A stretch of 64,000 nt of DNA, from the NCBI GenBank assembly GCA_049513055.1, contig JBEKWN010000031.1, positions 8,012 through 72,011 of the forward strand, given 5' to 3'. Made by a program: the position numbers and the translations under genes. Below, piece by piece: positions 5,738-30,124 of this stretch. The notes below the pieces were generated by a model that made no database searches, was not told where the DNA came from, and was given only the letters and a program-made list of their open reading frames with translations. This DNA is from Thermodesulfobacteriota bacterium. GTDB lineage: Bacteria; Desulfobacterota; BSN033; UBA1163. The stretch's first letter is position 1, and each line of letters begins with the position of its first letter.

Positions 5738-6094
5738 ATGTTGATTGAATATCTTGCCATTCTCATCTATATTGTCATAGCTGTTGTTTTTGCCCTCTTT
5801 GCCATTGCCGCTTCCGCTCTCTTAGGCCAGAGAAAACCCACGGCTATCAAACAAGCGCCCTACGAATGTGGGATGACGACCATTGGCTCAAGCTTCCGCA
5901 GGATATCCATCAAGTATTACATTATTGCCATGCTTTTCCTCCTCTTTGATATTGAAGTGGTCTTCCTCTATCCCTGGGCAGTGGTCTTCAAACAGTTTAA
6001 GGTCTTTGCCTTCGTCTCAATGGCTGTCTTCATTGGAATTTTACTCGTCGCCTATATCTACATCTGGAAAAAAGGAGCATTGGAATGGGAATAG
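5738..6094 (+). CDS. nuoA: NADH-quinone oxidoreductase subunit A
   Basis: [28 protein letters not shown]. Confidence 0.97.
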
Positions 6095-6591: not shown

Positions 6592-6613
6592 AAGGATAAA
6601 AGAGGAAAAGGGA

Positions 6614-7102
6614 ATGGCTGAAATCAATATCGCAGTGAAGAAATTGCAAGAAAAATTCCCGGCCTCCGTTTTGGAGGTGAAGACATTTCGGGAAGAGGTC
6701 AATGTCACAGTCCAGAAGAAAGACATTTTTGAGATCTGTAAATTTCTCTATTCCGACCCGGATCTCCAATACCAGATGCTCATTGATCTCTGTGGTGTAG
6801 ATTTCTTTCCCGAGTCCCCCCGTTTTGAAGTGGTTTATTTTTTCTACTCGATGAAGAAACAACAAAGATTGAGGCTGAAAATAAAAGTTGGAGAGTCTGA
6901 ATCGGTTTCAAGTGTGGAGTCAATCTGGAAAGCAGCCAACTGGTTAGAACGGGAGGTCTATGACCTCTTCGGGATCCCTTTTGATAACCATCCTGATTTG
7001 AGGAGGATTCTCCTCTGGGATGGTTATGAAGGTCATCCCTTGAGAAAGGATTTTCCGGTCGAAGGACCGGATTTTGACAAACCCTTTGTTCCCGAGGTTT
7101 GA
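6614..7102 (+). CDS. nuoC: NADH-quinone oxidoreductase subunit C
   Basis: ANWLEREVYDLFGI, HPDLRRIL, GHPLRKDFP. Confidence 0.97.
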   Translation: MAEINIAVKKLQEKFPASVLEVKTFREEVNVTVQKKDIFEICKFLYSDPDLQYQMLIDLCGVDFFPESPRFEVVYFFYSMKKQQRLRLKIKVGESESVSSVESIWKAANWLEREVYDLFGIPFDNHPDLRRILLWDGYEGHPLRKDFPVEGPDFDKPFVPEV

Positions 7103-7103
7103 A

Positions 7104-8276: not shown

Positions 8277-8281
8277 AAGAG

Positions 8282-8390
8282 AAAATCCAAATGCCAAAAT
8301 CCATAATGTCAAAGGAATGTCAAAATCCAAAAATTTTGAAATTTGGATTTGATTTGTCATTTGAGCTTTGACATTTGAACTTTCATTTTT
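8282..8390. repeat. Intergenic tandem-repeat hairpin (AAATCCA/AATGTCA units plus reverse complement)
   Basis: aaatccaaatgccaaaatccataatgtcaaaggaatgtcaaaatccaa ... atttggatttgatttgtcatttgagctttgacatttgaacttt. Confidence 0.75.
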
Positions 8391-8405
8391 AATGAAGGGG
8401 TCGTT

Positions 8406-10358: not shown

Positions 10359-10431
10359 TGTGTTGGTGAATAGTGAGTGGTGAATCGTGGTGAGGGATTC
10401 CAAATCACGATTCAAGAATCTCGAATCACGA
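10357..10431. repeat. Intergenic 7-nt tandem-repeat hairpin
   Basis: tagtgtg ttggtga atagtga gtggtga atcgtg / aatcacg attcaag aatctcg aatcacg. Confidence 0.65.
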
Positions 10432-10437
10432 GGTTTG

Positions 10438-13071: not shown

Positions 13072-13083
13072 AGGAGAAGCAGG

Positions 13084-14103
13084 ATGCAACTGTTGTATCT
13101 TCTCATTGAGATCATTGTCAAATGCGTGGTGGTTTTTGCCGGTCTGATGATTGTTGTAGCCTATTTGACCTGGCTGGAACGGAAGGTTTTGGGTCATATC
13201 CAGATTCGTTATGGCCCTAATCGCTGTGGGCCCTTTGGATTACTTCAACCCTTTTCGGATGCGGTCAAAGCCTTCTTTAAAGAGGACCTGGTTCCTGGAA
13301 GGGCGGATAAGGTCATCTTCGTCATGGCCCCGATGATTTCGATCATCGCAGCCATCAGCATCTTTGCCGTCATCCCCTTTGGAAATCAGTTTACCATCCC
13401 TGGAACGAATTGGGTGGTCAAACTGCGGCTGGCCGATGTGGATATAGGACTTCTCTATATCTTTGGTGTGGCCTCTCTTGGAGAATTTGGGATTATCTTA
13501 GGAGGCTGGTCTTCTGGAAATAAGTATGGATTGACCGGTTCCCTTCGGGCTGCGGCTCAGATGATCAGTTATGAAGTAGCTCTTGGCATCGCGGTCATAG
13601 GAGTCCTCATCCTCTCAGAAAGCCTGAGACTGACCGAGATCGTTCGTCTTCAGGGAGGAGGGTTCTGGAATTGGAATATTTGGTATCAGCCGGTGGCCTT
13701 TGTCCTTTATCTGATTTGCGGTCTGGCTGAGATCAACCGAACTCCCTTTGACATGCCTGAGGCTGAAGCAGAGCTGGCCTGCGGGTTCAACATTGAATAC
13801 AGCAGCATGAAATTTGCCCTCTTCTTCATGGCTGAATACGCCCATATGGTTACGATGGGCGCCGTGGCCGTGACGCTCTTTCTGGGAGGATGGCAGCCGA
13901 TTATTCCTCAGCTCAGTTTCATTCCCGGCATCGTCTGGTTCTGCGCAAAACTCTTTATCTTCCTCTTCTTCTTCATCTGGGAGCGAGGGACCATGCCGCG
14001 ACTCCGATACGATCAGATCATGAAGTTTGGCTGGAAGATTTTAATTCCATTGGCACTGATCAATCTTTTAGTAACTGGATTGGTCGTTTCACTGAAAGGG
14101 TAA
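13084..14103 (+). CDS. nuoH: NADH-quinone oxidoreductase subunit H
   Basis: ERKVLGHIQIRYGPN, LRAAAQMISYE, AEINRTPFDMPEAE, PRLRYDQ. Confidence 0.97.
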   Translation: MQLLYLLIEIIVKCVVVFAGLMIVVAYLTWLERKVLGHIQIRYGPNRCGPFGLLQPFSDAVKAFFKEDLVPGRADKVIFVMAPMISIIAAISIFAVIPFGNQFTIPGTNWVVKLRLADVDIGLLYIFGVASLGEFGIILGGWSSGNKYGLTGSLRAAAQMISYEVALGIAVIGVLILSESLRLTEIVRLQGGGFWNWNIWYQPVAFVLYLICGLAEINRTPFDMPEAEAELACGFNIEYSSMKFALFFMAEYAHMVTMGAVAVTLFLGGWQPIIPQLSFIPGIVWFCAKLFIFLFFFIWERGTMPRLRYDQIMKFGWKILIPLALINLLVTGLVVSLKG

Positions 14104-14117
14104 GAAAGAGGTCAACG

Positions 14118-14531
14118 ATGATCATTCCATTGCTGAAAGGTTTGGCGCTTACTTTGAACCGGTTTTTTTCCAAACCCATCACCATCCAATATCCTGAAGA
14201 GAAGGTACCTCCAGCAAAACGTTGGAGAGGCATTCAATATTTTGAAAAGGATGAGCGCGGGAAAACCAAATGTGTGGCCTGCGGCCTCTGTATGGCGGTC
14301 TGTCCCTCTCAGTGCATCTATATTGAGACGGCTGAAGATGAAGAGGGTCGACGGTATCCTCTTACCTATGAACTCGATGCCAGCCGATGTATCTTTTGTG
14401 GTTATTGCGAAGAGGTCTGTCCGGTGAATGCCATCTTTTTAGGAAAGAACTATGAATGGGTGGAAGGGGATCGAAAAGTCTATCTCATGACCACCGAGAA
14501 ACTTTTAGAAGAGAAAAAGGTTAATCCATAA
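14118..14531 (+). CDS. nuoI: NADH-quinone oxidoreductase subunit I
   Basis: TIQYPEEK, CVACGLCMAVCP, CIFCGYCEEVCP; start is ATG 14118 (the ORF track over-extends it). Confidence 0.96.
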   Translation: MIIPLLKGLALTLNRFFSKPITIQYPEEKVPPAKRWRGIQYFEKDERGKTKCVACGLCMAVCPSQCIYIETAEDEEGRRYPLTYELDASRCIFCGYCEEVCPVNAIFLGKNYEWVEGDRKVYLMTTEKLLEEKKVNP

Positions 14532-14543
14532 GGAGTAAAACGG

Positions 14544-15071
14544 ATGGCTGAAAATATCGTAACGATATTTCAATGGTTGATCTTTTTGGGGGTGGCCTTT
14601 GTCTCCATTATCGCCTCCTTATTAGTCATCACTCGAAAGAACCCTATTCACAGTGCTCTTTTTTTGGTGTTGACCTTCCTCTGCGTGGCGGTGCTTTATC
14701 TCCTGCTCTATAGTCAATTCATCGCCGTCATCCAGGTGGTGGTTTACGCCGGTGCCATCGCGATGCTGATCGTTTTTGTCATCATGCTTCTGGATCTGGA
14801 GCAGGAGCTTCGATCCGGTTTAAAACTTTTTTATTCAAAAGTGATCGGTGGCATGCTGATGGTCCTTTTTCTTTTCGGGATTATTTATTCGGTCGTGGCC
14901 AAATCCCCAACTGGCAAGATGGGTTCCTATACACCGGATCAGGCGAGTGCCAATGTGAAGGCCGTCGGCGAGATGCTTTTTACTCAATACCTTTTCCCCT
15001 TTGAGATTGTCTCCGTCCTTCTCGTGGCGGCCATCGTCGGAGCGGTCATTTTAAGTAAGAAAAGGACTTAA
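14544..15071 (+). CDS. nuoJ: NADH-quinone oxidoreductase subunit J
   Basis: [30 protein letters not shown]. Confidence 0.96.
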
Positions 15072-15081
15072 GGAGAGGATT

Positions 15082-15396
15082 ATGGTGATTCCATCCGTTC
15101 CCCCTGAATGTTATTTGGTCTTGAGCGGATTGCTCTTCACGATTGGAGTAATCGGAGCCCTGACCCGGCGAAATGCCATTGTGGTCTTCATGTGCATCGA
15201 GATGATGCTCAATGCTGTGAACATTACCTTCATCACCCTATCCCGTTTTCTCCAGTCATTGGACGGGGTTCTCTTCGCCTTTTTTGTAATGGCCGTGGCC
15301 GCCGCGGAGGCTGCGGTTGGGTTAGCGATCTTTGTAATGATCTATCGCTCAAGAGAAACAATCAATGTGGACGAAATTAATATTATGAAGTGGTGA
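15082..15396 (+). CDS. nuoK: NADH-quinone oxidoreductase subunit K
   Basis: [27 protein letters not shown]. Confidence 0.97.
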
Positions 15397-15401
15397 TCCA
15401 A

Positions 15402-15480
15402 AGTTATGAGTTAAGAATTATGAGTTATGAATTAAAATCAGATTTCAACTCTCAACTCTTAACTCTCAACTCTTAGCTCT
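15402..15480. repeat. Intergenic 7-nt tandem-repeat hairpin (GTTATGA / AACTCTY)
   Basis: gttatga gttaaga attatga gttatga att ... aactctc aactctt aactctc aactctt agctct. Confidence 0.8.
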
Positions 15481-15499
15481 TTTTTTAAAGGAGTCTTTC

Positions 15500-17491
15500 A
15501 TGTTTGATTATGTCTGGTTGATCCCCATGTTTCCGGCGATCGGGTTTTTGATCAACGGATTTTTTGGAAGACAATATTCAAAAAAAGTGGTCGGTTGGGT
15601 GGCCTGTTCAGCCCTCGGACTCTCCTTTCTCACTTCCATCCTCATCTTCTTTGAATTGATTGGGAGGCCATCCACTGAGCGCGTCTTTGAAAAAGTGATT
15701 TTTGATTGGGTGGTCTCGGGCTCTTTCCAAACAGTGATCGGCTACCAGATCGACCCTCTCTCCATCCTGATGGCACTGGTGGTCAGCGGGGTCAGTTTCT
15801 TCATCCACATCTACTCTGTAGGATACATGCATGACGATCCGGGTTATCCACGGTATTTCACCTACCTCAACCTCTTCGTCTTCATGATGCTCAACCTCAT
15901 CCTGGCCAACAACTTCTTGCTGATGTTTGTGGGATGGGAGGGTGTCGGCCTCTGTTCCTATCTCTTGATCGGTTTCTGGTTTGAGAAGGATTCCGCTGCT
16001 AACGCAGGGAAAAAGGCTTTTGTGGTCAACCGAGTGGGCGACTTCGGTTTCATTCTTGGAATGTTCCTCCTCTTCACCAGTCTTGGAAAACACGGGATCT
16101 GGACATTAGATTTTACAGAAGTCTTTGCCAATGCAAATAAGCTCGATACCGCCACGGTGACCGCCATCACCATTCTGTTCTTTATCGGTGCATGTGGAAA
16201 ATCGGCACAGATTCCCCTATATGTGTGGCTCCCTGATGCCATGGAAGGTCCCACGCCGGTCAGTTCCCTTATCCACGCGGCCACCATGGTGACCGCAGGG
16301 GTATACATGATCGCCCGGTGTAATGTACTCTACACCATGGCACCTCTCTCCATGGCGATCGTTGCCATTGTCGGCGTGGCGACTGCCATCTATACTGCTT
16401 CCATTGGATTCTGTCAGAACGATATCAAGAAAGTTCTGGCCTATTCTACAATCAGCCAGCTGGGATATATGTTTCTGGGCGTGGGAGTAGGTGCATTCAG
16501 CGCTGGCATCTTCCATCTGATGACCCATGCCTTTTTCAAGGGGCTTCTCTTTCTTGGCGCAGGAAGTGTCATGCATGCCCTGAGTGGCGAATTGGATATG
16601 AGAAAGATGGGAGCTCTCAGAAAAAAGATTCCCATCACCTTCTGGACATTCTTCTTTGCCACGCTGGCGATTGCCGGGATTCCTGGGCTCTCTGGATTTT
16701 TCAGCAAGGATGAAATCCTCTGGCAAGCCTTTTCCAGCTCCCACGGCCATTTCTTATTGTGGCTGGTGGCTGCTATCGCTGCTGGGATGACGGCCTTCTA
16801 TATGTTCAGGGCTCTGTTCATGACCTTCTTTGGTGAGTCCAGGGTTGATGAGCATGTGGCACATCATATCCATGAATCGCCCAAGATCATGACAGTTCCT
16901 TTAATGGTCCTTGCTGTGCTCTCCATTGTTGGAGGTTATATAGGTGTTCCCCATGTTTTGGGAGGAGCCAATCACATCCATGAGTTCCTCGCTCCTGTAT
17001 TAGGAGGTGGGGCTGAGCCGGCCAAAGCCCATGCCGGGATTTCAATCCTCTCACAGGCCTGGGCATCAGGAGGAGAGGGAGGAGGACATGGGGCTACCTT
17101 AGAACTTCTCATGATGGTGGTCTCTGTGGTCATCGCACTCATCGGGATTGGGATCGCTTACCTCTTCTACGTGAAGAACCCAGCCCTTCCCAAACTGTTG
17201 GCCGAGAGGTGGAAGGGACTCTACAAACTTGTTTTTAACAAATATTATGTTGACGAACTCTATGAAATCCTCTTCATCAACTCTCTTAAAAATTTGGGCA
17301 TGGGACTCTGGAAAGGGTTTGATGACTTTGTCATCGATGGTACGATCAATGGCATTGCCTATCTTATCGGTTTGCTCTCCGGAGCGATGAGAAAGATGCA
17401 GACCGGTTTGGTTCAAAACTACGCCTTTTCAATGATCATTGGTGGAATCGTCCTTGTAGCCTATTATATCGTGCGTGCTATTTTCTACTAA
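15500..17491 (+). CDS. nuoL: NADH-quinone oxidoreductase subunit L
   Basis: [44 protein letters not shown]. Confidence 0.97.
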
Positions 17492-17525
17492 ATCCGTTGC
17501 CGCACAGAGCAAAGGAGCTGGTTTC

Positions 17526-19076
17526 ATGTACATTTTGGGAATTCCCATCCTATCGCTGCTGATCTTCTTTCCAATATTGGGCGCCATTGTTCTCCTCTTC
17601 ATCAACAAAGAGAATGGGAGAGCGATCAGGTGGGTCACCTTAATTTTTTCTCTCATTGAATTCATTTTCTCGCTGCCCCTCTTCTTTGCCTTCGATTCCA
17701 AGACAGGAGCGATGCAATTCGTGGAGGATTGGTGGTGGATTCAGAGCTATGGGATCAGCTATAAATTGGGCATTGATGGAATCAGTCTTCTTCTGGTTCT
17801 CTTGACTACCTTTTTGACCATCCTATGCATCCTGTGCTCCTGGACAGCGATCACCTTCCGAGTAAAAGAATTCATGATTTCGTTCTTCTTCCTTGAGACA
17901 GGAATGATCGGTGCCTTGGTGGCCCTCGATCTCGTCCTTTTCTATGTCTTCTGGGAAGTGATGCTGATCCCGATGTACCTCCTCATCGGTGTCTGGGGTG
18001 ATCCCAAGAGACGAATTTATGCAGCGATCAAGTTCTTCCTCTTTACCATGGCAGGAAGCGTGCTGATGCTTGTGGCTATCTTAATCCTCTATTTCCTCAA
18101 TCAGAAAGCAACGGGTATATCCACCTTCGATGTACTCGAACTCTATAAGTTGGGATTACCGGTCGGGACGCAGTACTGGCTCTTCGGAGCCTTTGCCCTG
18201 GCCTTTGCCATCAAGGTTCCGATGTTTCCATTTCATACCTGGTTACCCGATGCCCACACCGAGGCGCCGACCGCTGGAAGCGTGATCCTGGCAGGTGTCT
18301 TGCTGAAGATGGGAACCTATGGGTTCATCCGATTTGCCATCCCCCTGTTTCCGAAGGCAGCCTTCGATCTTTTGCCCCTGGTCTCTGTTTTGGCGCTTAT
18401 CGGAATTATCTATGGAGCATTAGTTTCGATGATGCAACCCGATCTCAAACGACTGGTCGCTTTCTCGAGCGTGAGCCACCTGGGATATGTCATGCTCGGG
18501 ATGTTTGCTTTCAATATGCAAGGGATCGAGGGGTCGATCTATCAGATGCTCAACCACGGGATTAGCACAGGGTCCCTCTTTTTGATCGTCGGGATGGTCT
18601 ACGAACGCCGCCATACGCGGCTGATTGCCGACTTCGGAGGACTCTCGAAGGTGATGCCGATTTATGCTGTCTTCTTCATGATCGTGACCCTCTCATCGAT
18701 TGGTCTCCCCGGGACGAATGGGTTTGTGGGAGAGTTTTTGATCCTGCTCGGTGCTTTTCAACGCAATGTCATCTACGGGGTGTTGGCTGCCACCGGTGTT
18801 ATTTTGGGAGCCGCTTATATGCTATGGATGTTTCAAAGGGTGATGTTTGGGAAGATCACCCGTCCTGAAAATGAAAAGCTGAAGGACCTCAATGCGAGAG
18901 AGATTACTATCCTCGTTCCGATGGTCATCATGATTTTCCTCATGGGGATCTATCCTAAACTTTTTTTCAGTAAGATGGACGCCAGCGTAGAGAAGTTTAT
19001 AAAGGATTTCAAGGGAAAGGTTGAAATGAAGGCTGACCTTCCCTCGCCGAAAATATTGGCAGAGATAAAAAAATAG
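17526..19076 (+). CDS. nuoM: NADH-quinone oxidoreductase subunit M
   Basis: [41 protein letters not shown]; likely start ATG 17526 after AAGGAG. Confidence 0.97.
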
Positions 19077-19171
19077 GGTTTAAGGGGTCTAGGGTTCAAG
19101 TGTCCTAATGAAATAATCTTTAACTCATCTTAAGCCCTGAAATCCATGAACCCTCGAATCCTTGGACCCTT
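19076..19171. repeat. Intergenic 8-nt tandem-repeat hairpin (GGGTTCAA / TGAACCCT)
   Basis: gggtttaa ggggtcta gggttcaa gtg ... taagccct gaaatcca tgaaccct cgaatcct tggaccct. Confidence 0.75.
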
Positions 19172-19191
19172 TTAATTGGAGGATTCTTTAG

Positions 19192-20649
19192 ATGAAAATA
19201 CCAGAGATTGACCTCTATCTCATTGCACCGGAGATCATCATCACCGCCTTCGGGTTTTTAGTGCTTCTGGTGGACGTCTTTTTACCCAAAGAAGAAAGAA
19301 AGGGGTACCTCGGAGTAATTAGCCTCATCGGGATCGTGGTCGCCTTTCTTTTCACCCTTCCTCAGATGGGAGATGTCAAATCCGGTTTTGAAGGGATGTT
19401 CATTTCGGATGGATATGCTCTCTTCTTCAAGATCACTTTTCTGATCATTGCCTTTTTGACCGTCCTGATCTCCATTGGATACACCCAGAGGGAAGGGATC
19501 GCATTCGGAGAATATTATGCCCTGATCCTTTTTGCAACCCTCGGGATGATGCTGATGGCAGCAGGGACTCACCTCATCATCATCTTTCTCGGGTTGGAAA
19601 CGATGTCCATTTCCATCTATATCCTGGCAGGAATGATGCGAGAGGATAAGAGGTCAGTGGAAGCGGCATTGAAATATTTTCTTTTAGGGGCCTTTGCCAC
19701 AGGATTCCTCCTCTATGGTATTGCCCTCATCTATGGGGCCACAGGATCCTTTCATCTGAAGGATATCGCCTCTTATATCGCTACCAAAAATCTCTTGAGA
19801 AGCCCGATGCTCCTGATGAGCCTTGTTTTTCTCACCATTGGGTTTGGTTTCAAGATTGCTTCGGTTCCTTTTCATATGTGGACGCCTGATGTCTATGAAG
19901 GGGCTCCCACTACCATCACGGCTTTTATGGCGACAGGGGTGAAGGCAGCAGGTTTTTCAGCTTTGATCAGGGTCTTCTTCTCCGCCTTGCCCGCTTTTCG
20001 TCCGGATTGGACCTCGATCATGTGGGTAATTTGTGTGGCGACGATGACGCTCGGAAATATTGTGGCGATCTCCCAGACCAATATCAAGCGGATGCTGGCT
20101 TACTCGAGCATTGCTCATGCTGGATACATTTTGGTCGCCTTTGTTGCAGGCAACGATTTAGGAACCTCAGGCATTCTTTTCTATCTCATGACTTATGCCT
20201 TTATGAACCTCGGTGCCTTTACCGTAGTCATCCTCCTCGGGAAGAAGGGAGAAGAGAATACCCTCATCAGTGATTATGCAGGGATTGGATTCAAATATCC
20301 GCTCTTAGCAGTTTCCATGACCATTTTTCTCCTCTCCATGGCAGGTATTCCTCCTCTGGGTGGATTTATGGCCAAATTCTATATCTTCAGCGCAGCGGTG
20401 AAATCGAAATTTTATTGGTTGGCCATCCTTGGTGTCCTGAACAGTGCGGTTTCGGTTTACTATTATCTCCGGGTCACCGTGCTCATGTATTTCAGGGAAT
20501 CCGAACGGGAGATCACCGGCCTCCAATTTTCACCCGCTTCTGTGCTCGCATTGATTTTGGCCGTGATCGGGACCCTTTACCTGGGGATCTTCCCCGCCAA
20601 TGTGCTCTCCTTCGTTTTTTTTCTCGGCCACAAGAGGGATTTGATTTGA
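19192..20649 (+). CDS. nuoN: NADH-quinone oxidoreductase subunit N (last ~12 codons appear foreign)
   Basis: EAALKYF, GFKIASVPFHMWTPDVYEGAP, KRMLAYSSIAHAGY, LSMAGIPP. The stop codon overlaps the next promoter's -35 box. Confidence 0.95.
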   Translation: MKIPEIDLYLIAPEIIITAFGFLVLLVDVFLPKEERKGYLGVISLIGIVVAFLFTLPQMGDVKSGFEGMFISDGYALFFKITFLIIAFLTVLISIGYTQREGIAFGEYYALILFATLGMMLMAAGTHLIIIFLGLETMSISIYILAGMMREDKRSVEAALKYFLLGAFATGFLLYGIALIYGATGSFHLKDIASYIATKNLLRSPMLLMSLVFLTIGFGFKIASVPFHMWTPDVYEGAPTTITAFMATGVKAAGFSALIRVFFSALPAFRPDWTSIMWVICVATMTLGNIVAISQTNIKRMLAYSSIAHAGYILVAFVAGNDLGTSGILFYLMTYAFMNLGAFTVVILLGKKGEENTLISDYAGIGFKYPLLAVSMTIFLLSMAGIPPLGGFMAKFYIFSAAVKSKFYWLAILGVLNSAVSVYYYLRVTVLMYFRESEREITGLQFSPASVLALILAVIGTLYLGIFPANVLSFVFFLGHKRDLI

Positions 20650-21192: not shown

Positions 21193-23205
21193 TTATTTTT
21201 TTCCTCTTCTCACATCCACGGTGTTGTCATAAAACGTACTTCCTCCCCCTTGGTCTGTCAAACGCTGGGAAGTCAGGGCATTTACAGAACGAGGGCCAGG
21301 GCAGTGGTTCAGCCACCAGACCCCTTCTGCCACCACAATGCCGGAAGGAACTTTTGGAGTTACATGGAGGGTGAAAGAGACCTCACCGAGTTGATTGAAG
21401 GCAATGACAGAGTCGCCCTCTCTCATCCCCTTCGCCTCCGCATCAGCAGGGTTCATCTGAAGAAACATGGCCTTTTCCTTCTTGCGGAGGTCTTTTCTTT
21501 CCCTGAAAGAGGAGTTTAAGGCATAATGGCTGGGGCTCGTCATCAAGCGAAAGGGATAATTCCCTTCATAAGGAGGGAGATAACAGGGCAACGGGTGAAA
21601 TTCTTTTGGGTTCAAAATTTCAATCTTTCCTGAAGGAGTTTTAAAACGAGTGCGCGCATCTGATGGAAGTGGAATTTCGACTGCCTTCCCAACCGAAAAG
21701 GCTTCTTGATCAATGGCTTCTCTCATGGGGCTCGGAATGGAAAGAAGATGGTCAATCAGTTCATCAGCAGTTTGATGGAAAAAGGGCTCATGAAATCCCA
21801 TCCCATGAGCCAATAGACAGAAGACCTCCCAGTTCGATTTGCTTTCTCCAACAGGCGGGAGAACCGCTTTTGCACGCTGAATGCAGTAGGTACCATAGGA
21901 ACGGTAGAGATCGCTGTGTTCGAGAGAGGATGTTGAGGGCAGCACAATATCTGCGTATCGAGCCGTGTCCGTCATGAATCTTTCGTGAACAATGGTGAAG
22001 AGGTTTTCTCGCGCCAGACCTTTTAAAACCTGATTCTGATCAGGAGTAACAGCCGCCGGGTTGGAATGATAGACATAGAGGCTTTGGACAGGAGGATCAT
22101 TAAGTTCATCCAATGCCCAACCCAGGCGATTCATATTAATGGTACGAGTTTTCTTAGCCATAAAGTCTTCTCGCAGGAATTCATTGATAGCAAAAGCCCC
22201 AGCCGTGCTGGTGCCGGTAAAACACCCGCCTCCTCTTTTCCCATAAGCCCCTACTAAAGCAGGTAAACAGACAATGGTGCGTATGGTCATGGCTCCGTTG
22301 CCATATCGGGAGAGTCCGCTCCCAAGGCGGATGAAGGGATTCTTCGCTTTACCATAAGCATGAGCCATAGCTTTAATGGTCTCTGGAGAAAGACCTGTGA
22401 GGAGGCTGACTTTTTCGGGTGGAAAGTCTGGGAGAATTTTTTCTTTCAATTCCTCAAATCCCTGAACATGGGCAGTGAGAAAATCATGGTCAATGAGGTC
22501 GTCCCTGACGAGAAGGTGCATCAATCCCAAAGCGAGAGAGCCGTCGCTTCCTGGGCGGACGATGTAAATTTGATCAACTGTAGAGGAAGTGAGGGTTTGG
22601 TAAGTGTCAATAAGCCAAATCGTTGCTCCATTTTGTTTGGCTCTCTTGACCCCATGGAGAAAATGGATATTGGTAGCTACAGCATTGATTCCCCATAGAA
22701 TCACCAGATCGCTCTCTGCCACCTCATCAGGATGGGGGGCTGGCGTTTCTCCCATCACCACTTTCCAACCCACCTCTTTAGCAGGAGAGCATATAGTTCG
22801 GTTGAGGCGAGAGGCTCCAAGTCGATAGAAAAAAGGATGCCCGGCATTCCGCTGGATGAGACCCATTGTTCCAGCATAGGAGTATGGAAGAATAGCCTCC
22901 GAGCCATACTGATTGATGATATTTTGCCAGCGCCCTGTAATCCGGTTAATTGCTTCTTCCCAAGAAATAGAATGAAATTCACCGGAGCCTTTGGCTCCTG
23001 CCCGAAAAAGGGGACGAGTGAGGCGGAGCGGTGAATGGACGGTTTCTTGATAGCGATTCATCTTCACGCAAAGGGTGCCCCTTGTAAAAGGATGTTCAGG
23101 GTCGCCAGAAACTTTGACTGCTTTTCCGTCTATGACTTCTACCAGAAGTCCGCAGGTGTCAGGTCAATCATAAGGGCAAACCGATCGTTTTATCTTTTTC
23201 AACAT
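21193..23205 (-). CDS. Molybdopterin (bisPGD) oxidoreductase, 670 aa if the in-frame UGA at codon 14 is read as Sec
   Basis: AAGGAG RBS and ATG at 23205 give MLKKIKRSVCPYD-(TGA 23166..23164)-PDTCG..GDPEHPFTRGTLC, in frame with ORF 21193..23067. Also RTICS (Cys Mo-ligand position), FMTDTARYADIVLP, FKTPSGKIE. Confidence 0.85.
23134..23150 (-). promoter_or_regulatory. Putative SECIS element for UGA at 23166..23164
   Basis: Minus strand GACTTCT-GGT-AGAAGTC: perfect 7-bp stem with a G-first loop 20 nt after the UGA. Confidence 0.65.
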
Positions 23206-23347
23206 GAAAAATCTCCTTCATTATCGCCTGGGATTAAGAGAAAACATGGCATTTCAATGGATGAAACTTCTTTACCATCTTCGCCAGAAGTATATTCTAC
23301 CTTTATGACAACTTCAATCCCATTACAAAAAACTACCTTCCCATATC

Positions 23348-23402: not shown

Positions 23403-23606
23403 ATGAAACGTACAAACATTGTTATGGACGAAAAGCTAATAAAAGAAGGGATGAAGACCACTGGGATTAAAACTCGTAGGGCCTTGGTTGACTATGCCTT
23501 GCGGGACCTTCTTCGTCGCGAATCTCAAAAAAGGATCTTAGAGTTAAAAGGAAAGGTTCATTGGGAAGGCGATTTGTCATCCATGCGAAAAGGAAGAAGG
23601 GTTTAA
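23403..23606 (+). CDS. vapB: VapB-family antitoxin
   Basis: MKRTNIVMDEKLI..TGIKTRRALVDYAL..LKGKVHWEGDL; overlaps the PIN toxin start (TAATG). Confidence 0.88.
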   Translation: MKRTNIVMDEKLIKEGMKTTGIKTRRALVDYALRDLLRRESQKRILELKGKVHWEGDLSSMRKGRRV

Positions 23607-24007
23607 TGGTCTTGGTTGATACAACGGTCTGGGTAGACCTTTTTTCAGGGTTGACCACTCCTCAGGTGATTGTACTCGAATCGCTGATTTTAAAAAGAGA
23701 AGATATCTGCCTCTGCGGTGTTATTCTTACAGAGGTTTTACAAGGAATACGGGATGACAAAGAGCACGGCAAGACACAAGCCATTTTCTCGAACCTTTTG
23801 TACCTTCCAATGACCCGTGAGACATTCCTACTGGCGGCCCACATCTACCGCTTTCTTCGAGCACGGGGAATCACCATAAGGAACTCGATTGACTGTATGA
23901 TAGCCGCTGTATGTATTGAGAATAAGGTGGCATTGCTCCATCACGACAGGGATTTCGACCTTATCTCAAAAAAATTTGATTTGGAAATTGTAAATTTGCC
24001 CACCTGA
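23606..24007 (+). CDS. vapC: VapC PIN-domain toxin
   Basis: MVLVDTTVWVD, EVLQG, IDCMIAA, LLHHDRDF. Confidence 0.92.
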   Translation: MVLVDTTVWVDLFSGLTTPQVIVLESLILKREDICLCGVILTEVLQGIRDDKEHGKTQAIFSNLLYLPMTRETFLLAAHIYRFLRARGITIRNSIDCMIAAVCIENKVALLHHDRDFDLISKKFDLEIVNLPT

Positions 24008-24125
24008 CTTTGAAAAGTACTCTTCCTTTGCTTCCTTTTTAAATTTTATTCCCGTTTGACTTCTTCGCCCAAATTCAATAAACTCTAAAACAAATTGAGG
24101 TGTTTAATCGAGAGAAGAGTGATAA

Positions 24126-24491
24126 ATGGATAAAGATTCCTCTTTTACTGTCCGGGATCTTCCAAGACAAGAAAGGCCTCGTGAAAGGCTCCAAAAATTT
24201 GGCCCAGAGGCACTTTCTGCTCAAGAACTTTTAGCTCTGGTCATTGGGCGGGGTATTCCCAAAAAATCAGTAATGAGTATTGCACAGGAGTTATTGGTGA
24301 GATTTGGTAATATTAAAGCAATAAGCCAGGCAACCATAGAGGAACTCTCTCAAATAAGGGGGATCGGTTTTGCCAAAGCAGCCCAACTTAAAGCATGTTT
24401 TGAGCTTGGAAAAAGAGAAGAATTAGAACCAGAGTTGAAAAATTTTGATATTAAAGATCCTGAAATGGTTGATTCGAAAGGAATTGATTAG
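24126..24491 (+). pseudogene. radC: Truncated RadC (N-terminal/HhH part only; JAB domain missing)
   Basis: DLPRQERPRERL..ALSAQELLA..GIGFAKAAQLKACFELGKR, then an abrupt end with no HNHPSG motif. Confidence 0.8.
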
Positions 24492-24496
24492 AGGAT

Positions 24497-24742
24497 ATGG
24501 CTCCAAAGAAAGAAGAAAATTTATCTAAGGAAAAACTTCTGGCTGAGATTGAGCGGTTGAAGAAAGAATTAAAGAAGAGAAAGAAGTATGGTCTGGTTTG
24601 GGAGGAAAAGCCTGAAGAAGTTGTCGAGATGTGTAAGAAAAAATTGCCTGCCACTCCAAGAGATTTAGCCTTTCGTTGCAAGGAAGTGACTGAAGAGGCA
24701 GGCCTTCAAAGGGTGAGGCTTGGGAATTTGCATCTCCTTTAA
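24497..24742 (+). pseudogene. Chimeric remnant: DNA-methyltransferase (Mod-like) N-terminus joined to a radical-SAM-like C-terminus
   Basis: KKYGLVWEEKPEEVVEMCKKKLP resembles Mod N-termini; ATPRDLAFRCKEVTEEAGLQRVRLGNLHLL resembles C-termini of PFL-activase-like radical SAM proteins. Both recognised by eye. Confidence 0.55.
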
Positions 24743-24755
24743 TCTCACATAACTT

Positions 24756-24794
24756 CCCCCTCTCCCTCGATGGGAGAGGGCGGGGGTGAGGGTG
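24756..24794. repeat. REP-like palindrome CCCTCTCCC-N5-GGGAGAGGG..GGGGTGAGGG
   Basis: 9-bp stem 24758-24766/24772-24780 followed by a GGGGGTGAGGG tail; matches a widespread extragenic repeat pattern. Confidence 0.7.
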
Positions 24795-27151
24795 GACACT
24801 TGGACGTGAGATCCAATATTTCCTTAAGCGAAGCAGACACCAAAGCAAAATTAATTGATCCTGTTCTTCATCAACGGGGTTGGACAGAAGACCTTATTCG
24901 CCGTGAGGAGACAGAGCGCGGGATTGACATCATAGATGGTAAACCAAGACGAAGAGAGCGAGGCAGGACAGATTATCTTTTAAGGGTAAGGGTCAACATC
25001 AGCACTCAGCCCGTTGCTATTGCCCTGATTGAAGCCAAACGAAGCGATGAGCCTCCCGATAAAGGACTTGAACAGGCTAAGAAATATGCCCGTTTGAACC
25101 ACGTCCCTTTTGTCTATTCATCCAATGGCCACCTCTTTGTAGAGTATGATCATTTTACTGGCCAAACTACAAGACCAAATCCTCTCCCAGAATTCCCAAC
25201 GCCTGAGATACTTCATAAGCGTTATGAGGAAGGTGTTGGTTTTTTGTTAGAAAGCAATAGTGCAAGGCCGCTTCTTGTTCCGTATCCAGGAGGAGAGGCG
25301 AGTAGACGCTATTACCAAGATGCCGCTATCCGTGCATTGCTTGAGAAAATAGCCGCAGGTGAAAAACGACTTCTTTTATACCTGGCCACAGGCTCAGGAA
25401 AAACTTTTATTGCAGTTCATATTTTGAAGAAGATTGCGGATGCCGGACAGTTGCGCCGTGCTTTGTTTGTGTGTGACCGGGATGAGTTGCGTGCCCAGGG
25501 CCTTGGGGCTTTCCAGAATGTTTTTGGGGCTGACGCCGCAGAAGTCACCACGGCAAACCCCCAGAAGAACGCCCGTATCTTGATTTCAACCTACCAAACA
25601 CTCAATGTGGCAGGGGAAACCGATGATGCCAAGTTTTTCCTCGAAAATTATCCCCAAAATTATTTTGGCCATATCATTATTGATGAATGCCACAGAAGCG
25701 CGTGGGGGAAATGGAGTATTGTGCTTCGCCAGAACCCAGAAGCTATTCAAATAGGGCTCACTGCAACCCCGCGATTCTTTGAAGGAGGAAGGCCAGAAGA
25801 GCGTCGGGAGGATGAAGAAATTACAGCCAATAATCTCAAATATTTTGGTGAGCCTGTTTATGAGTACGACATGGCCCAGGGGATTGAGGATGGATATCTT
25901 CCTGGCTGCGAGATTATCAGGCGAGAGGCGAATCTGGATAACGTGGGGGTTACACGAGAAGACATTAAGCGTCTTGGGGCAAAAGATGCGATAACCGGTC
26001 AAACGATCAGGCCTGATGAAACCCGCGAGCATTATGAAGCACCTTCTTTTGAAGATATGATCCAGTTACCTGACAGAGTAAAAATCATGTGTCAGGACCT
26101 CTTTGAAATGTTTCTTCAAACCGGTGGCCCACACCAGAAGACTGTAATCTTCTGTACCCGGGATACTCATGCGGATGCTGTTGATGCTGAAATGAACAAT
26201 CTCTATGCCCAATGGTGTGCTCGAAACGGCCAATCGCGCCTCGATCCTTATGCCTTCAAATGCACCGCTTCTGTGGGTGGGAGCCAGTTCATTTCTGAAT
26301 TGAGAGGTTCAGAGCGGACCCACTTCATTGCAACTACCGTTGACTTAATCACGACCGGTGTTGATGTTCCAATACTTCGTAATGTCGTTTTTTTCAAATA
26401 TGTCCGTTCCCCTATTGCATTTCAGCAGATGATGGGTAGAGGTTCGAGAATTCATCTCCCTACCAACAAGTTAATGTTTCGTGTCTATGATTATACAAAT
26501 GCTACCCGTCTCTTAGGGAAAGATTTTGGAAGCCGTCCTTTGCCCACCCGTGAAACAAGAGAACTTGAAGAGGAGAGAAAGGAAAAAATAATTCGTGTTG
26601 AAGGGTTTGATGTCCATATTAATCCTGCCGGCACGTATATTGTCACAAAAGTTGGTGATCGATTGGGGATGGTTACCGTGGAAGAATACAAACAGACGTT
26701 GGCCCAGCGCTTGATCGAAGAGGCAAAGACGCTGGATGATTTTCGCAGCCTCTGGATTGACCCACAGAAACGAAAAACACTTATTGGGCTTTTGCCTGAT
26801 GACGGACAAGGTCTCAGATTACTTCGGGAACTTTTGAAATACCAGGATTATGATCTTTATGATGTGTTGGCAGAGATTGGTTATGGAATTGCCCCGAAAA
26901 ACCGTGTTGAGCGTGTTTCAGCATTAAAATATAAGCACATCAATTGGTTCAATAGCCTCCCTCAAAAGACGAGTAGCGCCTTGATAGCCCTCGCTAAGCA
27001 ATTTGAAAAGGGTGGTACAGAAGAGTTAGAAAATCCATTTATTTTCAATGCGCCTGATGTTATCAAAGCAGGAGGTCTTGAGGCTTTGAAGGGTTTGGGT
27101 GAACCCAAGGATATTATCAACGAGACCAAAATGAGGCTTTTTGCAGCATGA
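24770..27151 (+). CDS. hsdR: Type I restriction enzyme R subunit (EcoEI-like); true start probably 24800 or 24806
   Basis: SEADTKAKLIDP, D..IEAK nuclease motif, QAKKYA, ATGSGKT, IIIDECHRS, GLTATP, FQQMMGRGSR. Confidence 0.92.
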   Translation: MGEGGGEGGHLDVRSNISLSEADTKAKLIDPVLHQRGWTEDLIRREETERGIDIIDGKPRRRERGRTDYLLRVRVNISTQPVAIALIEAKRSDEPPDKGLEQAKKYARLNHVPFVYSSNGHLFVEYDHFTGQTTRPNPLPEFPTPEILHKRYEEGVGFLLESNSARPLLVPYPGGEASRRYYQDAAIRALLEKIAAGEKRLLLYLATGSGKTFIAVHILKKIADAGQLRRALFVCDRDELRAQGLGAFQNVFGADAAEVTTANPQKNARILISTYQTLNVAGETDDAKFFLENYPQNYFGHIIIDECHRSAWGKWSIVLRQNPEAIQIGLTATPRFFEGGRPEERREDEEITANNLKYFGEPVYEYDMAQGIEDGYLPGCEIIRREANLDNVGVTREDIKRLGAKDAITGQTIRPDETREHYEAPSFEDMIQLPDRVKIMCQDLFEMFLQTGGPHQKTVIFCTRDTHADAVDAEMNNLYAQWCARNGQSRLDPYAFKCTASVGGSQFISELRGSERTHFIATTVDLITTGVDVPILRNVVFFKYVRSPIAFQQMMGRGSRIHLPTNKLMFRVYDYTNATRLLGKDFGSRPLPTRETRELEEERKEKIIRVEGFDVHINPAGTYIVTKVGDRLGMVTVEEYKQTLAQRLIEEAKTLDDFRSLWIDPQKRKTLIGLLPDDGQGLRLLRELLKYQDYDLYDVLAEIGYGIAPKNRVERVSALKYKHINWFNSLPQKTSSALIALAKQFEKGGTEELENPFIFNAPDVIKAGGLEALKGLGEPKDIINETKMRLFAA

Positions 27152-28077
27152 ACCAAAAGACTTTACCTCAGAAGGAAGTTTTTGATTTCCTTGTTGCAAA
27201 TGGAATCTATCCAATGTACAGCAAGAAGGGGAAGATTTTCTTTAGAGGTTTAATCAGGATAGGTCTATCAACCACCGAAAAGACGAATGAGTTGATCGCA
27301 CAGCTGAATTTAAAGACAGACGAAGATTGCAAAAAAATAAGAAAAGAAGTTAAGGAGGCCGTGGCTGCTATTAGACCCACCCGGCCGATAAAGGAATGGA
27401 TAAAAGAAGAGAGGCCGAGAGAAATGCTGATCAAATATGGTCCGGAAGCTATCTCTCTATCGAAACTGCTGGCCATCATCCTTCGGACGGGGAAGGAGGG
27501 TACGAACGCTGAAGAATTGTCAAAAAGGTTGTTGAATCATTTCAAGACATTAAGAGAAATAGATTCCGCACCCATTTCTGAAATCTGCAAGATGGACGGG
27601 ATAGGATATACAAAAGCTGTTCAGATAAAGGCTGCTTTAGAACTCGGTAAAAGGCTTTACAAGGAAGAGGCGGAAAAGAAGAAAAGAATTGGAGGGGCTG
27701 ATGATGTCATAGGATATGTGGCGGAGTATTATGGCCCATATCTGAGGGACGCGAAGAAAGAGTTTTTCCATGTGATTCTCTTAGATATTAAGAATAAACC
27801 CCTTCACAACATAGAGATCAGTAAAGGTAGTCTGAATGCCGCGATCGTTGACCCAAAAGAAGTTATAAAAGAGGCAACATTAAGGTCTGCCTCTTCCATT
27901 ATATTGGTCCACAATCATCCATCAGGAGAGACAGAGCCATCCTCTGAAGATGTCGAAATAACAAGTCGCATCATTCAAGCCTGTGACCTTGTGGGTATAA
28001 AAGTTTTAGACCATATCATCATTGGGAAGAACAAAGACGATTATTTCAGTTTCGCAAAGGCAGGACTGATTAGATGA
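27148..28077 (+). CDS. radC: RadC-family JAB-domain protein with ~75 aa N-terminal extension
   Basis: EERPREML, GIGYTKAVQIKAALELGKR, intact JAB motif HNHPSG..PSSED..LDHIIIG. ATGA overlaps with hsdR and hsdS. Confidence 0.92.
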   Translation: MNQKTLPQKEVFDFLVANGIYPMYSKKGKIFFRGLIRIGLSTTEKTNELIAQLNLKTDEDCKKIRKEVKEAVAAIRPTRPIKEWIKEERPREMLIKYGPEAISLSKLLAIILRTGKEGTNAEELSKRLLNHFKTLREIDSAPISEICKMDGIGYTKAVQIKAALELGKRLYKEEAEKKKRIGGADDVIGYVAEYYGPYLRDAKKEFFHVILLDIKNKPLHNIEISKGSLNAAIVDPKEVIKEATLRSASSIILVHNHPSGETEPSSEDVEITSRIIQACDLVGIKVLDHIIIGKNKDDYFSFAKAGLIR

Positions 28078-29315
28078 ATAGCAACCTCTCATTCCCAATT
28101 CCCAATTCCGAACTCCCCGATGGTTGGCGCTGGGTGAAACTGGGAGAGGTTGCAAAAGAATTTGTAAATGGTGGGACACCAAGTACAAATATACCGGAGT
28201 ATTGGGATGGAAATATACCTTGGATCACTGGTGCTGATGTAACTGATTTTTGGGTTTCAGGGGGAAGAAAGTTCATAACAGAGGACGGACTTAAGAATAG
28301 TGTGACCCACCTGGTTCCAAGAAATACAGTTTTAGTCGTTACAAGAACAGGCGTCGGTAAAGTAGGGATCGCTGCAAATGATTTGTGTTTTAGTCAGGAT
28401 ATTACTGGTGTAATCTGCAGCGAAGAAATCTATCCTGAATATTTAGCATGGTACATCTTCTCGGAGAGGAATAATTTAACAAATATTCAAAGAGGTGCAA
28501 CCATTAAAGGCCTGACGAGAAATGATATTGAAAGCTTGCAGATCCCTTTACCGCCTTTAGAGGAACAAAAGAGCATTTCGTTAAAAATTCAGGAATTGAT
28601 GCAAGAGGTGGAACGTGCCCGAACTGCCTGCGAAAAGCAATTAGAAGCAGCCAAAGCCCTTCCTTCCGCCCACCTGCGAGAGGTCTTCAAAAGCGAAGAA
28701 GCAAAGAAGTGGGAGAGAAAGAGGCTGGGGGAGGTATTAGAGGAACCTTTAAAAAACGGTTTAAATTACAGGAAAGAAGACTTTGGAGCAGGGGTTAAAT
28801 TTGTAAATGTATCCGATGTCTTTTGCAGTGCAAGGATTAATAATAAAAAGTTGGACAGAATAAATGTATCAATAGAAGATGTTAAGAAATATCAATTACA
28901 AACCGGGGACATTCTCATTGTGCGATCATCCTTGAAAAGAGAAGGGATAGCATATCCAGCCTTGTTTATAGAAGATGAGGAACCGGTAGTTTTTTGTGGC
29001 TTCTTAATAAGAATTAGACCTGATAAAGGGAAAGTTGCTCCCTTTTATTTGCTCAATTATTTACGCTCTTCAATTGCAAGGGAAAAATTGATCGGTGATT
29101 CTGACACAGTAACCATAACCAATGTTGACCAAGGAACTCTTCTTTCTTTAGATATCCCTATACCATCTTTAGATGAACAACAACGTATCACTTTCGAACT
29201 CAAAGAAAAAATGGTACAGGTAGAAAATCTGCAATCGGCGATCCAAAATCAACATTCCGCATTAAGTGTCTTACCCCAGTCAATTTTGAGAAAGGCATTT
29301 GGTGGAAAATTATGA
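28074..29315 (+). CDS. hsdS: Type I R-M specificity subunit
   Basis: LPDGWRWVKLGEV, GGTPS, IPLPPLEEQ, second repeat IPIPSLDEQ, SILRKAFGGKL. Confidence 0.93.
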   Translation: MNSNLSFPIPNSELPDGWRWVKLGEVAKEFVNGGTPSTNIPEYWDGNIPWITGADVTDFWVSGGRKFITEDGLKNSVTHLVPRNTVLVVTRTGVGKVGIAANDLCFSQDITGVICSEEIYPEYLAWYIFSERNNLTNIQRGATIKGLTRNDIESLQIPLPPLEEQKSISLKIQELMQEVERARTACEKQLEAAKALPSAHLREVFKSEEAKKWERKRLGEVLEEPLKNGLNYRKEDFGAGVKFVNVSDVFCSARINNKKLDRINVSIEDVKKYQLQTGDILIVRSSLKREGIAYPALFIEDEEPVVFCGFLIRIRPDKGKVAPFYLLNYLRSSIAREKLIGDSDTVTITNVDQGTLLSLDIPIPSLDEQQRITFELKEKMVQVENLQSAIQNQHSALSVLPQSILRKAFGGKL

Positions 29316-30124
29316 AAGTTAAAGTGCTTATTGAGAAGATTACAGAATTCAGAAATTTATTAAAAGAACATTCTGAGTTATGGAGAAAATCCTTAGATCA
29401 CCCAATTCCTGATTATCCTGTAAGGAGCACCGACAAATTAAAAGAGCAACAAATACAGCTTTTCAGGATATATTATCAAATTGATGAATATTTAACAAAA
29501 TTTAGCAAAGGGCGTTTGATGCGCCACCCTATGACAGGTATTGAATGGGATGTTTATAGATCTTCTATTGGTAACGACGTTGCACAAATTAAAGGACCTT
29601 CTTTAAATAATTCGCTTTTGGAGCTTGAAGGGATTATTGCAATATTAGAGGGAGAAGATCCAGAAAAGGAGATTACCGGCGGTCGTATTTCACAAGAAGA
29701 CAAAAGGGTTTTTATAAGTCACGGCGGTGAAACTAAAGCCCTACTAAAAATAGAACGGTTTCTAAGAGGTTTAGGAATCACACCTGTTATTGTTAAACAT
29801 GAACCCAGTTTAGGAAAATCTTTGGATGATTTGGTAGAGGAACAAATGGAAACCTGTGTAGCAGTTATTATACTTGCTACGAAAGACGATAAAATCAAGA
29901 ATGAAAAAGGTGAAGAATACTTTCAGCCTCGGCCAAATGTTATCCATGAAATAGGACTCGCTCAAGAAAAAGTTAGGGATAGAATTATTTATCTAAAAGA
30001 GGAGGGATGCAGATTTCCTTCAAATATTGCTCCGAAAGTATGGGAAAACTTCATTCAAGATAACATGGAAAATGCTTTCATTAAGGTAGGAAAAGAACTT
30101 AAAGCATTTGGGATTATTGAATAG
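29312..30124 (+). CDS. TIR-like domain protein (predicted nucleotide-binding/Cap12-type TIR) with unknown N-terminal domain
   Basis: VFISHG..IERFL..LGITPVIV..GKSLDD..VIILATKDD..PRPNVIHEIG, with the predicted catalytic Glu present; AT-rich gene. Confidence 0.85.
   Translation: MKVKVLIEKITEFRNLLKEHSELWRKSLDHPIPDYPVRSTDKLKEQQIQLFRIYYQIDEYLTKFSKGRLMRHPMTGIEWDVYRSSIGNDVAQIKGPSLNNSLLELEGIIAILEGEDPEKEITGGRISQEDKRVFISHGGETKALLKIERFLRGLGITPVIVKHEPSLGKSLDDLVEEQMETCVAVIILATKDDKIKNEKGEEYFQPRPNVIHEIGLAQEKVRDRIIYLKEEGCRFPSNIAPKVWENFIQDNMENAFIKVGKELKAFGIIE

Follow-up and report, generated by a model that had tools for sequence, protein, structure and literature searches.

Within the stretch of DNA analysed here (64,000 nt of contig JBEKWN010000031.1, hereafter the window), which comes from a deltaproteobacterium living in peat, the minus strand carries a gene for a predicted cytoplasmic oxidoreductase of the dimethyl sulfoxide (DMSO) reductase superfamily, whose members hold molybdenum or tungsten on a bis-pyranopterin guanine dinucleotide cofactor (Mo/W-bisPGD). 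The 670-codon frame of this gene runs from a well-placed ATG to a TAA stop and has a single interruption, an in-frame TGA at codon 14, which falls on the second of the four cysteine positions of the proximal [4Fe-4S] cluster, FS0 (Table 1). When the TGA is read as selenocysteine (Sec, U), the N-terminus becomes MLKKIKRSVCPYD-U-PDTCGLLVEV...GTLC. Elsewhere in the window TGA serves as a normal stop, terminating 13 of the 42 open reading frames (ORFs) of at least 200 aa. The UGA at codon 14 is conserved, the coding sequence on both sides of it is under selection, the RNA that follows it is constrained in a Sec-specific manner, and the Sec machinery is present in the genome; beyond this, we infer the actual insertion of Sec, its ligation to cluster iron and its effect on the cluster. 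On comparative sequence grounds, UGA14 is very probably a genuine Sec codon and the gene a true selenoprotein gene. A preliminary description of this locus had proposed the ribosome-binding site (RBS) and start, the TGA at the second cluster cysteine, a hairpin with a G-first loop 20 nt past the UGA, an ordinary cysteine (RTIC) as the molybdenum ligand and an otherwise intact gene, and each of these features was recovered in our analysis.

Table 1. Features of the UGA-containing oxidoreductase gene, in window coordinates.
Feature	Position	Strand	Basis
Coding sequence, predicted cytoplasmic Mo/W-bisPGD (DMSO-reductase superfamily) oxidoreductase, 670 residues via UGA14 read-through	21193..23205	-	sequence and translation, Pfam
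Ribosome-binding site GAAGGAG, 7 nt before ATG	23213..23219	-	sequence; conserved in Sec forms
Start codon ATG	23203..23205	-	translation; purifying selection on codons 1-13 (pN/pS 0.21, Sec forms)
UGA codon 14, predicted to be read as Sec, homologous to second FS0 Cys ligand	23164..23166	-	homolog comparison, FdhF alignment
Cys10, first FS0 ligand (predicted)	23176..23178	-	invariant in alignment A3
Cys18, third FS0 ligand (predicted)	23152..23154	-	invariant in alignment A3
Cys46, fourth FS0 ligand (predicted)	23068..23070	-	invariant in alignment A3; aligned with fourth FdhF Cys
Cys139 (RTICS), predicted Mo/W ligand, ordinary TGC, followed by Ser	22789..22791	-	7qv7_S alignment; invariant in A3
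SECIS-like (selenocysteine insertion sequence-like) hairpin, 7-bp stem GACUUCU/AGAAGUC, GGU loop, within codons G19-V24	23134..23150	-	fold; synonymous constraint in Sec rows
Lower helix of 6 bp, pairing 23170-23165 to 23120-23115 and including U and G of the UGA; may extend the hairpin element	23115..23170	-	minimum-energy fold
Stop codon TAA	21193-21195	-	sequence and translation

The read-through product matches three Pfam domains above their gathering scores: Molybdop_Fe4S4 (PF04879; residues 4-55, E = 5.5e-13), Molybdopterin (PF00384; 61-466, 1.1e-43) and Molydop_binding (PF01568; 552-658, 3.8e-18). None of the 25 NCBIfam models listed reached its cut-off, the best scores being those of the formate dehydrogenase alpha-subunit model TIGR01591 (265.9 against a cut-off of 666.25) and of dmsA_ynfE, TIGR02166 (235.1 against 777.7). 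Among solved structures the closest matches are formate dehydrogenases of the FdhF type (7qv7_S, E = 8e-52; 1aa6, 8e-42), with acetylene hydratase (2e7z, 1.8e-31) more distant, and database names for the enzyme family are generic (a COG label, or 'molybdopterin oxidoreductase family protein' in Syntrophaceae or Thermodesulfobacteriota metagenome-assembled genomes, MAGs). The N-terminus, MLKKIKRSVC, shows no twin-arginine leader. In the alignment to 7qv7_S, U14 lies on the second motif cysteine, C46 on the fourth, and C139 on the metal-ligand cysteine (ticspak versus RLCHAPT), with serine in the place of the formate dehydrogenase histidine; the assignment of C139 comes from one of two printed alignments, the other, to 9t1s_L, being shifted by an insertion. 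The Mo/W ligand at position 139 is thus predicted to be an ordinary cysteine. An AlphaFold2 model built on a 17-row alignment was too poor for a fold search (mean predicted local distance difference test score, pLDDT, 58.2; predicted template-modelling score, pTM, 0.52; residues 13-17 below a pLDDT of 50).

The cluster motif reads C10-x3-U14-x3-C18-x27-C46, with three residues rather than two between the first and second ligands. An alternative is that Sec is inserted and yet leaves the cluster alone, acting instead as a separate redox-active selenol, for instance in a selenylsulfide with a neighbouring cysteine. A precedent of this kind exists in HdrA, for whose Sec197 such a role is proposed in the relevant part of PMC13518236. 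Here, however, the N-terminal domain contains exactly four Cys/Sec residues, all at the four conserved ligand positions, which leaves no others for the cluster; full-length Cys forms from the protein collection, as close to the window protein as 91% identity (P0004), have cysteine at position 14; and the equivalent residue in both FdhF and acetylene hydratase is a ligand known from structures. A non-ligand Sec is accordingly improbable, if the best placed of the alternatives considered in this work.

How widely the UGA recurs was examined at the nucleotide level. Orthologs of the first 120 residues were found in 25 of the 55 genomes of the order, and in the 27 homolog rows that these form together with two relatives of 44-45% identity (L028, L029), codon 14 is TGA in three (G000, G049 and G009, the window's own genome among them) and TGT or TGC in 24. 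G049, from a different genus, keeps its frame open for 679 aa. A scan for the TGA-form motif in one genome each of 185,579 species returned two records, both MAGs labelled 'uncultured delta proteobacterium', and the scan of metagenomes returned 20 TGA contigs, of which 19 were counted as the same gene with TGA at codon 14. Ten of these 20 contigs encode the full 661 residues from C10 to the stop (three being identical and a fourth nearly so), and seven more are open to the contig end. A further two carry one additional in-frame TAA each. In the last contig, L080, the pattern (1235-1263, minus strand) reads CPHD-TGA-PDAC and runs straight into the final ~40 residues of the enzyme; by its sequence this is a remnant, with an internal deletion, from a CPHD lineage that is more distant, and it is not counted as support. 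As a side observation, L080 hints that this more distant lineage, too, may once have had a TGA form. Among the 15 Fe4S4 domains of the window's genome, the UGA14 gene is the only one with an internal TGA; across 31 related genomes, no stop was seen in the best 150 of 323 PF04879 matches, a ranking in which TGA-bearing matches score lower and would fall below these. The exact DNA of the window's gene is present whole in 18 peat or wetland sequencing runs, which may include its source and therefore are not independent evidence. For a relative ~91-92% identical, a single study of sediment metatranscriptomes supplies contigs, from two runs, that span most of the gene and its start region, although RNA libraries may contain DNA and such contigs cannot show expression.

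Shortened products of 622-654 aa make up 13 of the 120 protein clusters listed, and all seven shortened proteins among the 12 that were fetched begin after codon 14, at codon 17, 22, 25 or 49, which is where gene calling would be expected to truncate a Sec form. One of them, P0008, is 97% identical to the Cys form P0004 and is presumably a Sec form, as judged from its truncated protein sequence.

To place the TGA-bearing (Sec) and cysteine-bearing (Cys) rows relative to one another, a maximum-likelihood tree was computed from 43 rows with codons 14-25 excluded. One clade with 100/100 support holds all 20 Sec rows together with seven Cys rows (G044; G013 with G014; G010, G002, G007 and G012), and every row outside it is Cys. 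Inside the clade, 11 and 7 rows form all-Sec subclades, indicating that the TGA has been inherited through divergence. The maximum-likelihood tree needs four Cys/Sec changes and bootstrap trees two to four, of which well-supported branches force one; constraining all 20 Sec rows to a single clade costs 9.1 log-likelihood units, and a single origin is not rejected by the approximately unbiased (AU) test (p = 0.29). Since only one change is forced and a single origin is not rejected, we claim one or more Cys-to-Sec replacements, placed at the clade's base or close to it, and do not claim many.

Downstream of the UGA, the gene can form a hairpin (GACTTCT 23150-23144, GGT 23143-23141, AGAAGTC 23140-23134) whose loop G follows the A of the UGA by 20 nt, or +24 counted from its U. 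The distance window of bSECISearch is roughly 16-37 nt. The likeness in geometry to the Sec sites of mvhD and fdhA that the preliminary description had pointed out is borne out, in that the loops at the window's other Sec sites start at +22 (fdhA U136), +24 (first mvhD U) and +27 (second mvhD U), in hairpins with 6-8-bp stems and G-first loops. Within the 16 distinct Sec rows, the codons that build the stem are nearly frozen: L20 is CTT, L21 CTG and V24 GTC in 16 of 16, G19 is GGG in 15 and GGA in one (always a purine in the third position, pairing with the U of V24), and E23 is GAA in 15 and GAG in one; beyond these, only the third base of V22, which closes the loop, varies. Gene-wide, in 12 full-length Sec rows, only 21 of 222 conserved four- or six-fold-degenerate columns (9.5%) are codon-invariant, and L20, L21 and V24 supply three of them. 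By comparison, the 14 Cys rows outside the clade have GGC or GGT at G19 in 13 cases, CTG at L21 in six and GTC at V24 in six. Five of the seven Cys rows inside the clade carry a stem change, with a pair lost in L019, L020, L022 and L023 and a U-G wobble left in L024 by GAG at E23. Counted over the stem, 96.1% of cells are paired in the Sec rows (11 distinct 36-nt rows) versus 79.6% for the 21 Cys rows; all 11 Sec rows keep both outer pairs, which are disrupted in 7 and 13 of the Cys rows, respectively. The possible lower helix is paired in 98.9% of Sec-row and 93.7% of Cys-row cells; being kept in Cys rows too, it is not Sec-specific and is uninformative.

A number of observations weigh against reading UGA14 as a Sec codon. 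With respect to the hairpin, the Cys forms L021 and L056 retain it completely, the core four stem pairs are largely fixed by the conserved Leu-Leu-Val-Glu peptide, and no stem pair shows changes on both sides. The covarying hairpins that were to accompany independent TGA-for-Cys cases are therefore borne out in part: the TGA recurs and the synonymous sites are frozen, but strict two-sided covariation is absent and a single origin is not rejected. The predicted folding energy of the 71-nt region is ordinary (z = 0.18, with 108 of 200 shuffles as stable), so that the case for the hairpin rests on the comparison of related sequences rather than on energy, and an Rfam search of 22900-23300 at a permissive threshold gave four chance-level matches, none of them a SECIS. 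With respect to sampling, the metagenome Sec rows were chosen by the TGA pattern itself, the metagenome DNA sampled being all of TGA form, and, with a single TGA origin not rejected, the Sec rows do not amount to many independent events. Finally, some copies are damaged. Two TGA-form metagenome contigs (L075 and L089) have one extra in-frame TAA each; the G009 copy (L030/L073) combines TGA14 with several frame changes, beginning with a one-base insertion just after the hairpin, which may reflect decay or assembly indel error; the G013 copy (L019), a Cys14 form, has TGA at codon 322, where the window has GGA (Gly322, in GAYGKRGGG), in a frame that otherwise continues to the normal end, for which nonsense mutation and sequencing error are among the possible causes; and the Cys-form copy of G044 is frameshifted. 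These copies indicate that the gene is dispensable in some lineages. Judged from the aligned codons, the hairpin may have been half-given by the Leu-Leu-Val-Glu codons, completed when the clade gained Sec, and thereafter selected only where the TGA persists.

The window's genome encodes the apparatus that Sec insertion would call upon, with SelB (367 bits), SelA (636 bits) and tRNA-Sec (82.2 bits) above curated cut-offs, as is SelD (371.9 bits), itself with an in-frame TGA; SelA was also present in five of five relatives tested, including both other TGA genomes. These data bear on a selenium-free alternative, in which a near-cognate tRNA (Trp or Cys), or tRNA(Sec) charged with Cys, reads the UGA, so that the mature protein would have Cys or Trp at position 14. 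UGA-C is the leakiest stop context in bacteria, and the invariance of Pro15 means that a C follows this UGA in every case; moreover, analyses of selection are blind to the residue that is inserted. A low-level leak, however, offers no explanation for the long-term retention of TGA when TGY is one step away, and it leaves unexplained both the Sec-specific constraint on the hairpin and the co-occurrence of a complete Sec machinery with selenoproteins of the same hairpin geometry. Selenium-free decoding is therefore quite unlikely, a little more so than a non-ligand Sec. In a separate observation on the same context, codon 15 (Pro; window 23163-23161) differs in usage, with CCT in 14 of the 16 Sec rows and CCG in 16 of the 21 Cys rows, a bias that may reflect a context preference or shared ancestry.

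Selection on the gene was assessed from the ratio of nonsynonymous to synonymous rates (dN/dS) in 13 long Sec rows (78 pairs), which lies between 0.065 and 0.151 for all pairs with dS above 0.1, the largest dS being 1.279. In 16 Sec rows distinct in their first 45 codons, codons 1-13 give a pooled ratio of nonsynonymous to synonymous differences (pN/pS) of 0.21, codons 15-45 one of 0.088, and the remainder from codon 46 onward one of 0.139; the value for codons 1-45 flanking the TGA is 0.12. The peptide before the TGA, and the stretch from the TGA to the downstream starts, is constrained like the body of the enzyme, and the purifying selection on both indicates that the region upstream of any internal start is translated.

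These values speak directly to the prospect, left open in the preliminary description, that the TGA is a nonsense mutation of a TGY codon in a dead or dying gene, its copies being recurrent or hitch-hiking nulls. Such a change takes a single base, the gene family contains the other defects listed above, and 7 of the 15 genomes of the genus have no N-terminal match. Against this, the TGA genes are intact over synonymous distances of up to 1.28 at a dN/dS of about 0.1, and the TGA is inherited throughout the two all-Sec subclades. The defects elsewhere are scattered singletons, whereas the codon 14 TGA is found in 22 copies besides the window's, in addition to the L080 remnant, and the synonymous sites of the hairpin are frozen in TGA forms only. 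Nor is this TGA a singleton among TGY homologs, since it is shared with two further species genomes and 19 metagenome contigs. A pseudogene is thus very unlikely, and the single-mutation account does not survive these results. Least probable of all is an internal start, in which the TGA would end a 13-residue leader and an enzyme wholly or partly lacking FS0 would begin downstream (in the window at GTG codon 47, in relatives at ATG codon 25 or 49), as gene-caller products beginning after codon 14 might suggest: selection on codons 1-13 and 15-45 matches that on the remainder of the gene in strength, a purine-rich RBS (GAAGGAG, GGAGG, GAGGGAG or similar; CAGAGAG in L079) precedes codon 1 in 17 of 17 Sec-form rows, C10 and C18 are invariant in Sec forms, and lineages do not share the same first start downstream, codon 25 being ATG, ATA, GTA, ATC or GTT. 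The constraint before and after the TGA, the kept RBS and the shifting downstream start together count against the dead-gene and internal-start readings alike.

If UGA14 is a Sec codon, synthesis of the enzyme would proceed as follows. Translation would initiate at ATG 23205 and, after thirteen codons, the ribosome would reach UGA-C, where the in-frame hairpin (with its loop G at +24) would recruit SelB with Sec-tRNA(Sec), so that Sec is inserted in place of termination. Sec14 would then replace the second of the four cysteines that ligate FS0, the single [4Fe-4S] cluster of what is predicted to be a monomeric cytoplasmic enzyme, and this cluster would exchange electrons with a Mo/W-bis-pyranopterin centre whose metal is carried by the ordinary C139. 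By analogy with Cys12 of acetylene hydratase, Sec14 may face the pterin and lie on the electron path between cluster and metal; selenium at this junction could, by the same analogy, alter the potential of the cluster, its electronic coupling or how robust the site is to oxidation. The gene stands alone, convergent to nuoL/M/N in six loci and with RadC-like genes upstream, and for a lone gene of this type the redox partner is probably a soluble carrier.

Comparison with characterized systems places the protein close to several of them and identical to none. With FdhA/FdhF it shares the superfamily, the domain order (Fe4S4, Molybdopterin, Molydop_binding) and an in-frame hairpin that closely follows the UGA, with a loop geometry seen also in the fdhA of the window (U136), and these enzymes include its best solved relatives. 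In them, however, Sec lies at the metal (U-H), as opposed to the second FS0 ligand, and the metal position here is Cys139-Ser140; with no C/U-H dyad at the metal and TIGR01591 below its cut-off, identity as a formate dehydrogenase was rejected. Acetylene hydratase resembles the predicted enzyme in being monomeric and cytoplasmic, with FS0 only and a cysteine metal ligand, and its cluster ligands (C9, C12, C16 and C46) parallel C10, U14, C18 and C46. It differs in having one residue fewer between ligands 1 and 2, in a similarity lower than that of the formate dehydrogenases, and in the catalytic Asp that follows its second cysteine (Cys12-Asp13; C-D versus U-P here); as Pro15 takes the place of this Asp after U14, acetylene hydratase identity was likewise rejected. 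DmsA/YnfE gives a full-length match (residues 4-667 on TIGR02166 profile positions 43-793), and the FS0 spacing of Escherichia coli DmsA, Cx3Cx3C, is the same as here. The score nonetheless falls far under the cut-off, and neither a twin-arginine leader nor adjacent DmsB/DmsC-like genes are present, for which reasons this identity was also set aside. MvhD/VhuD and HdrA share with the present protein a Sec in place of Cys within a cysteine motif (CxxU) of an Fe-S protein, and a two-Sec MvhD is encoded in the same window; their folds are unrelated, and they are small electron-transfer subunits as opposed to a catalytic Mo/W subunit.

The position of the proposed Sec can be set against published inventories. 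Table 1 of PMC13188914, a 2026 inventory of 119 prokaryotic selenoprotein families or subfamilies, includes only FdhA and FwdB as Mo/W-bisPGD entries, both with Sec at the metal (UHxP), and lists Sec in Fe-S-related motifs of other folds, namely MvhD/VhuD, HdrA, an Fe-S cluster domain protein, 2Fe-2S-binding proteins and HgcB. The portion of the same paper on metal-binding roles of Sec notes that these are mostly inferred from Cys homologs. A 2025 prediction paper, in its pertinent section (PMC12013277), adds a formate dehydrogenase beta subunit as a Sec protein. In the section of PMC13518236 concerned with HdrA (2026, the M. maripaludis Hdr-Vhu-Fwd structure), Sec197 is described as Cys-paired, a possible selenylsulfide relay that is not cluster-bound, and its role is itself debated there. 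For acetylene hydratase, the review PMC12096430 gives in its passage on this enzyme Cys9, 12, 16 and 46 as cluster ligands, with a bridging water linking Cys12 to one pterin cofactor. A full-text search of the published literature found no Mo/W oxidoreductase with Sec in its FS0 motif, although supplementary selenoproteome tables might list one under a generic name. The suggestion that Sec as an FS0 ligand was an undescribed arrangement thus holds, within these sources, for Mo/W enzymes and has to be narrowed for Fe-S proteins at large: what is new is Sec at the FS0 cluster of a Mo/W-bisPGD enzyme, Sec near Fe-S centres being already known.

The surroundings of the gene contain further features. 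Near the start of the window, just upstream of the nuo operon, lies a selenoprotein-rich formate/Hdr-type cluster (3-5374, plus strand), comprising an HdrA-like flavoprotein gene (3-1679), mvhD (1775-2227) with in-frame TGA codons at 1844 and 1997, a gene for an Fe-S protein (2234-3028) and a Sec-type fdhA (3299-5374; TGA 3704, U136). It is followed by a complex I-like operon (5738-20649, plus strand), in which a 650-aa protein (8406-10358) that joins a NuoF Fe-S region to a GltD/Pyr_redox_2 module stands where NuoE/F would usually be; next comes a NuoG-like protein of 894 aa (10387-13071) whose molybdopterin domain is complete. Directly upstream of the UGA14 gene is a defence or mobile island (23561-30124, plus strand), with genes for a PIN-domain protein (23561-24007), RadC/UPF0758 proteins (24126-24491 and 27148-28077), type I restriction R and S subunits (24770-27151 and 28074-29315) and a CAP12/Pycsar-type TIR protein (29312-30124). 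A second Mo/W oxidoreductase paralog is encoded at 53759-55972 (plus strand) by a 737-aa ORF (a 738-aa frame in the PF04879 match), with an Fe4S4 domain free of in-frame stops; it belongs to the 15 Fe4S4-domain genes of the genome.

Within the Mo/W-bisPGD superfamily, selenium has previously been known only on the metal (FdhA, FwdB); here it would lie at a ligand of the proximal [4Fe-4S] cluster. One practical consequence is that gene callers cut Sec-form genes to 622-654 aa with loss of the Fe4S4 domain, so that the enzyme is mis-annotated wherever the Sec form occurs. More tentatively, and at somewhat less than even probability, this may be the first Mo/W-bisPGD lineage with selenium on its Fe-S relay and not on the metal, as an FS0 selenolate where cluster and pterin meet, in which Sec and Cys are possibly toggled again and again by one-base changes within a genus-level clade. 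Natural Se/S isoenzyme pairs would then be 90-97% identical, and the choice between them would follow selenium supply. Because natural Cys counterparts reach 91% identity, the potential, coupling and oxygen robustness conferred by one Fe-Se bond would be directly comparable between the two forms. If selenium does lie on the Fe-S relay and is toggled in this way, the family would offer a natural system for the effect of a single Fe-Se bond on a biological [4Fe-4S] cluster.

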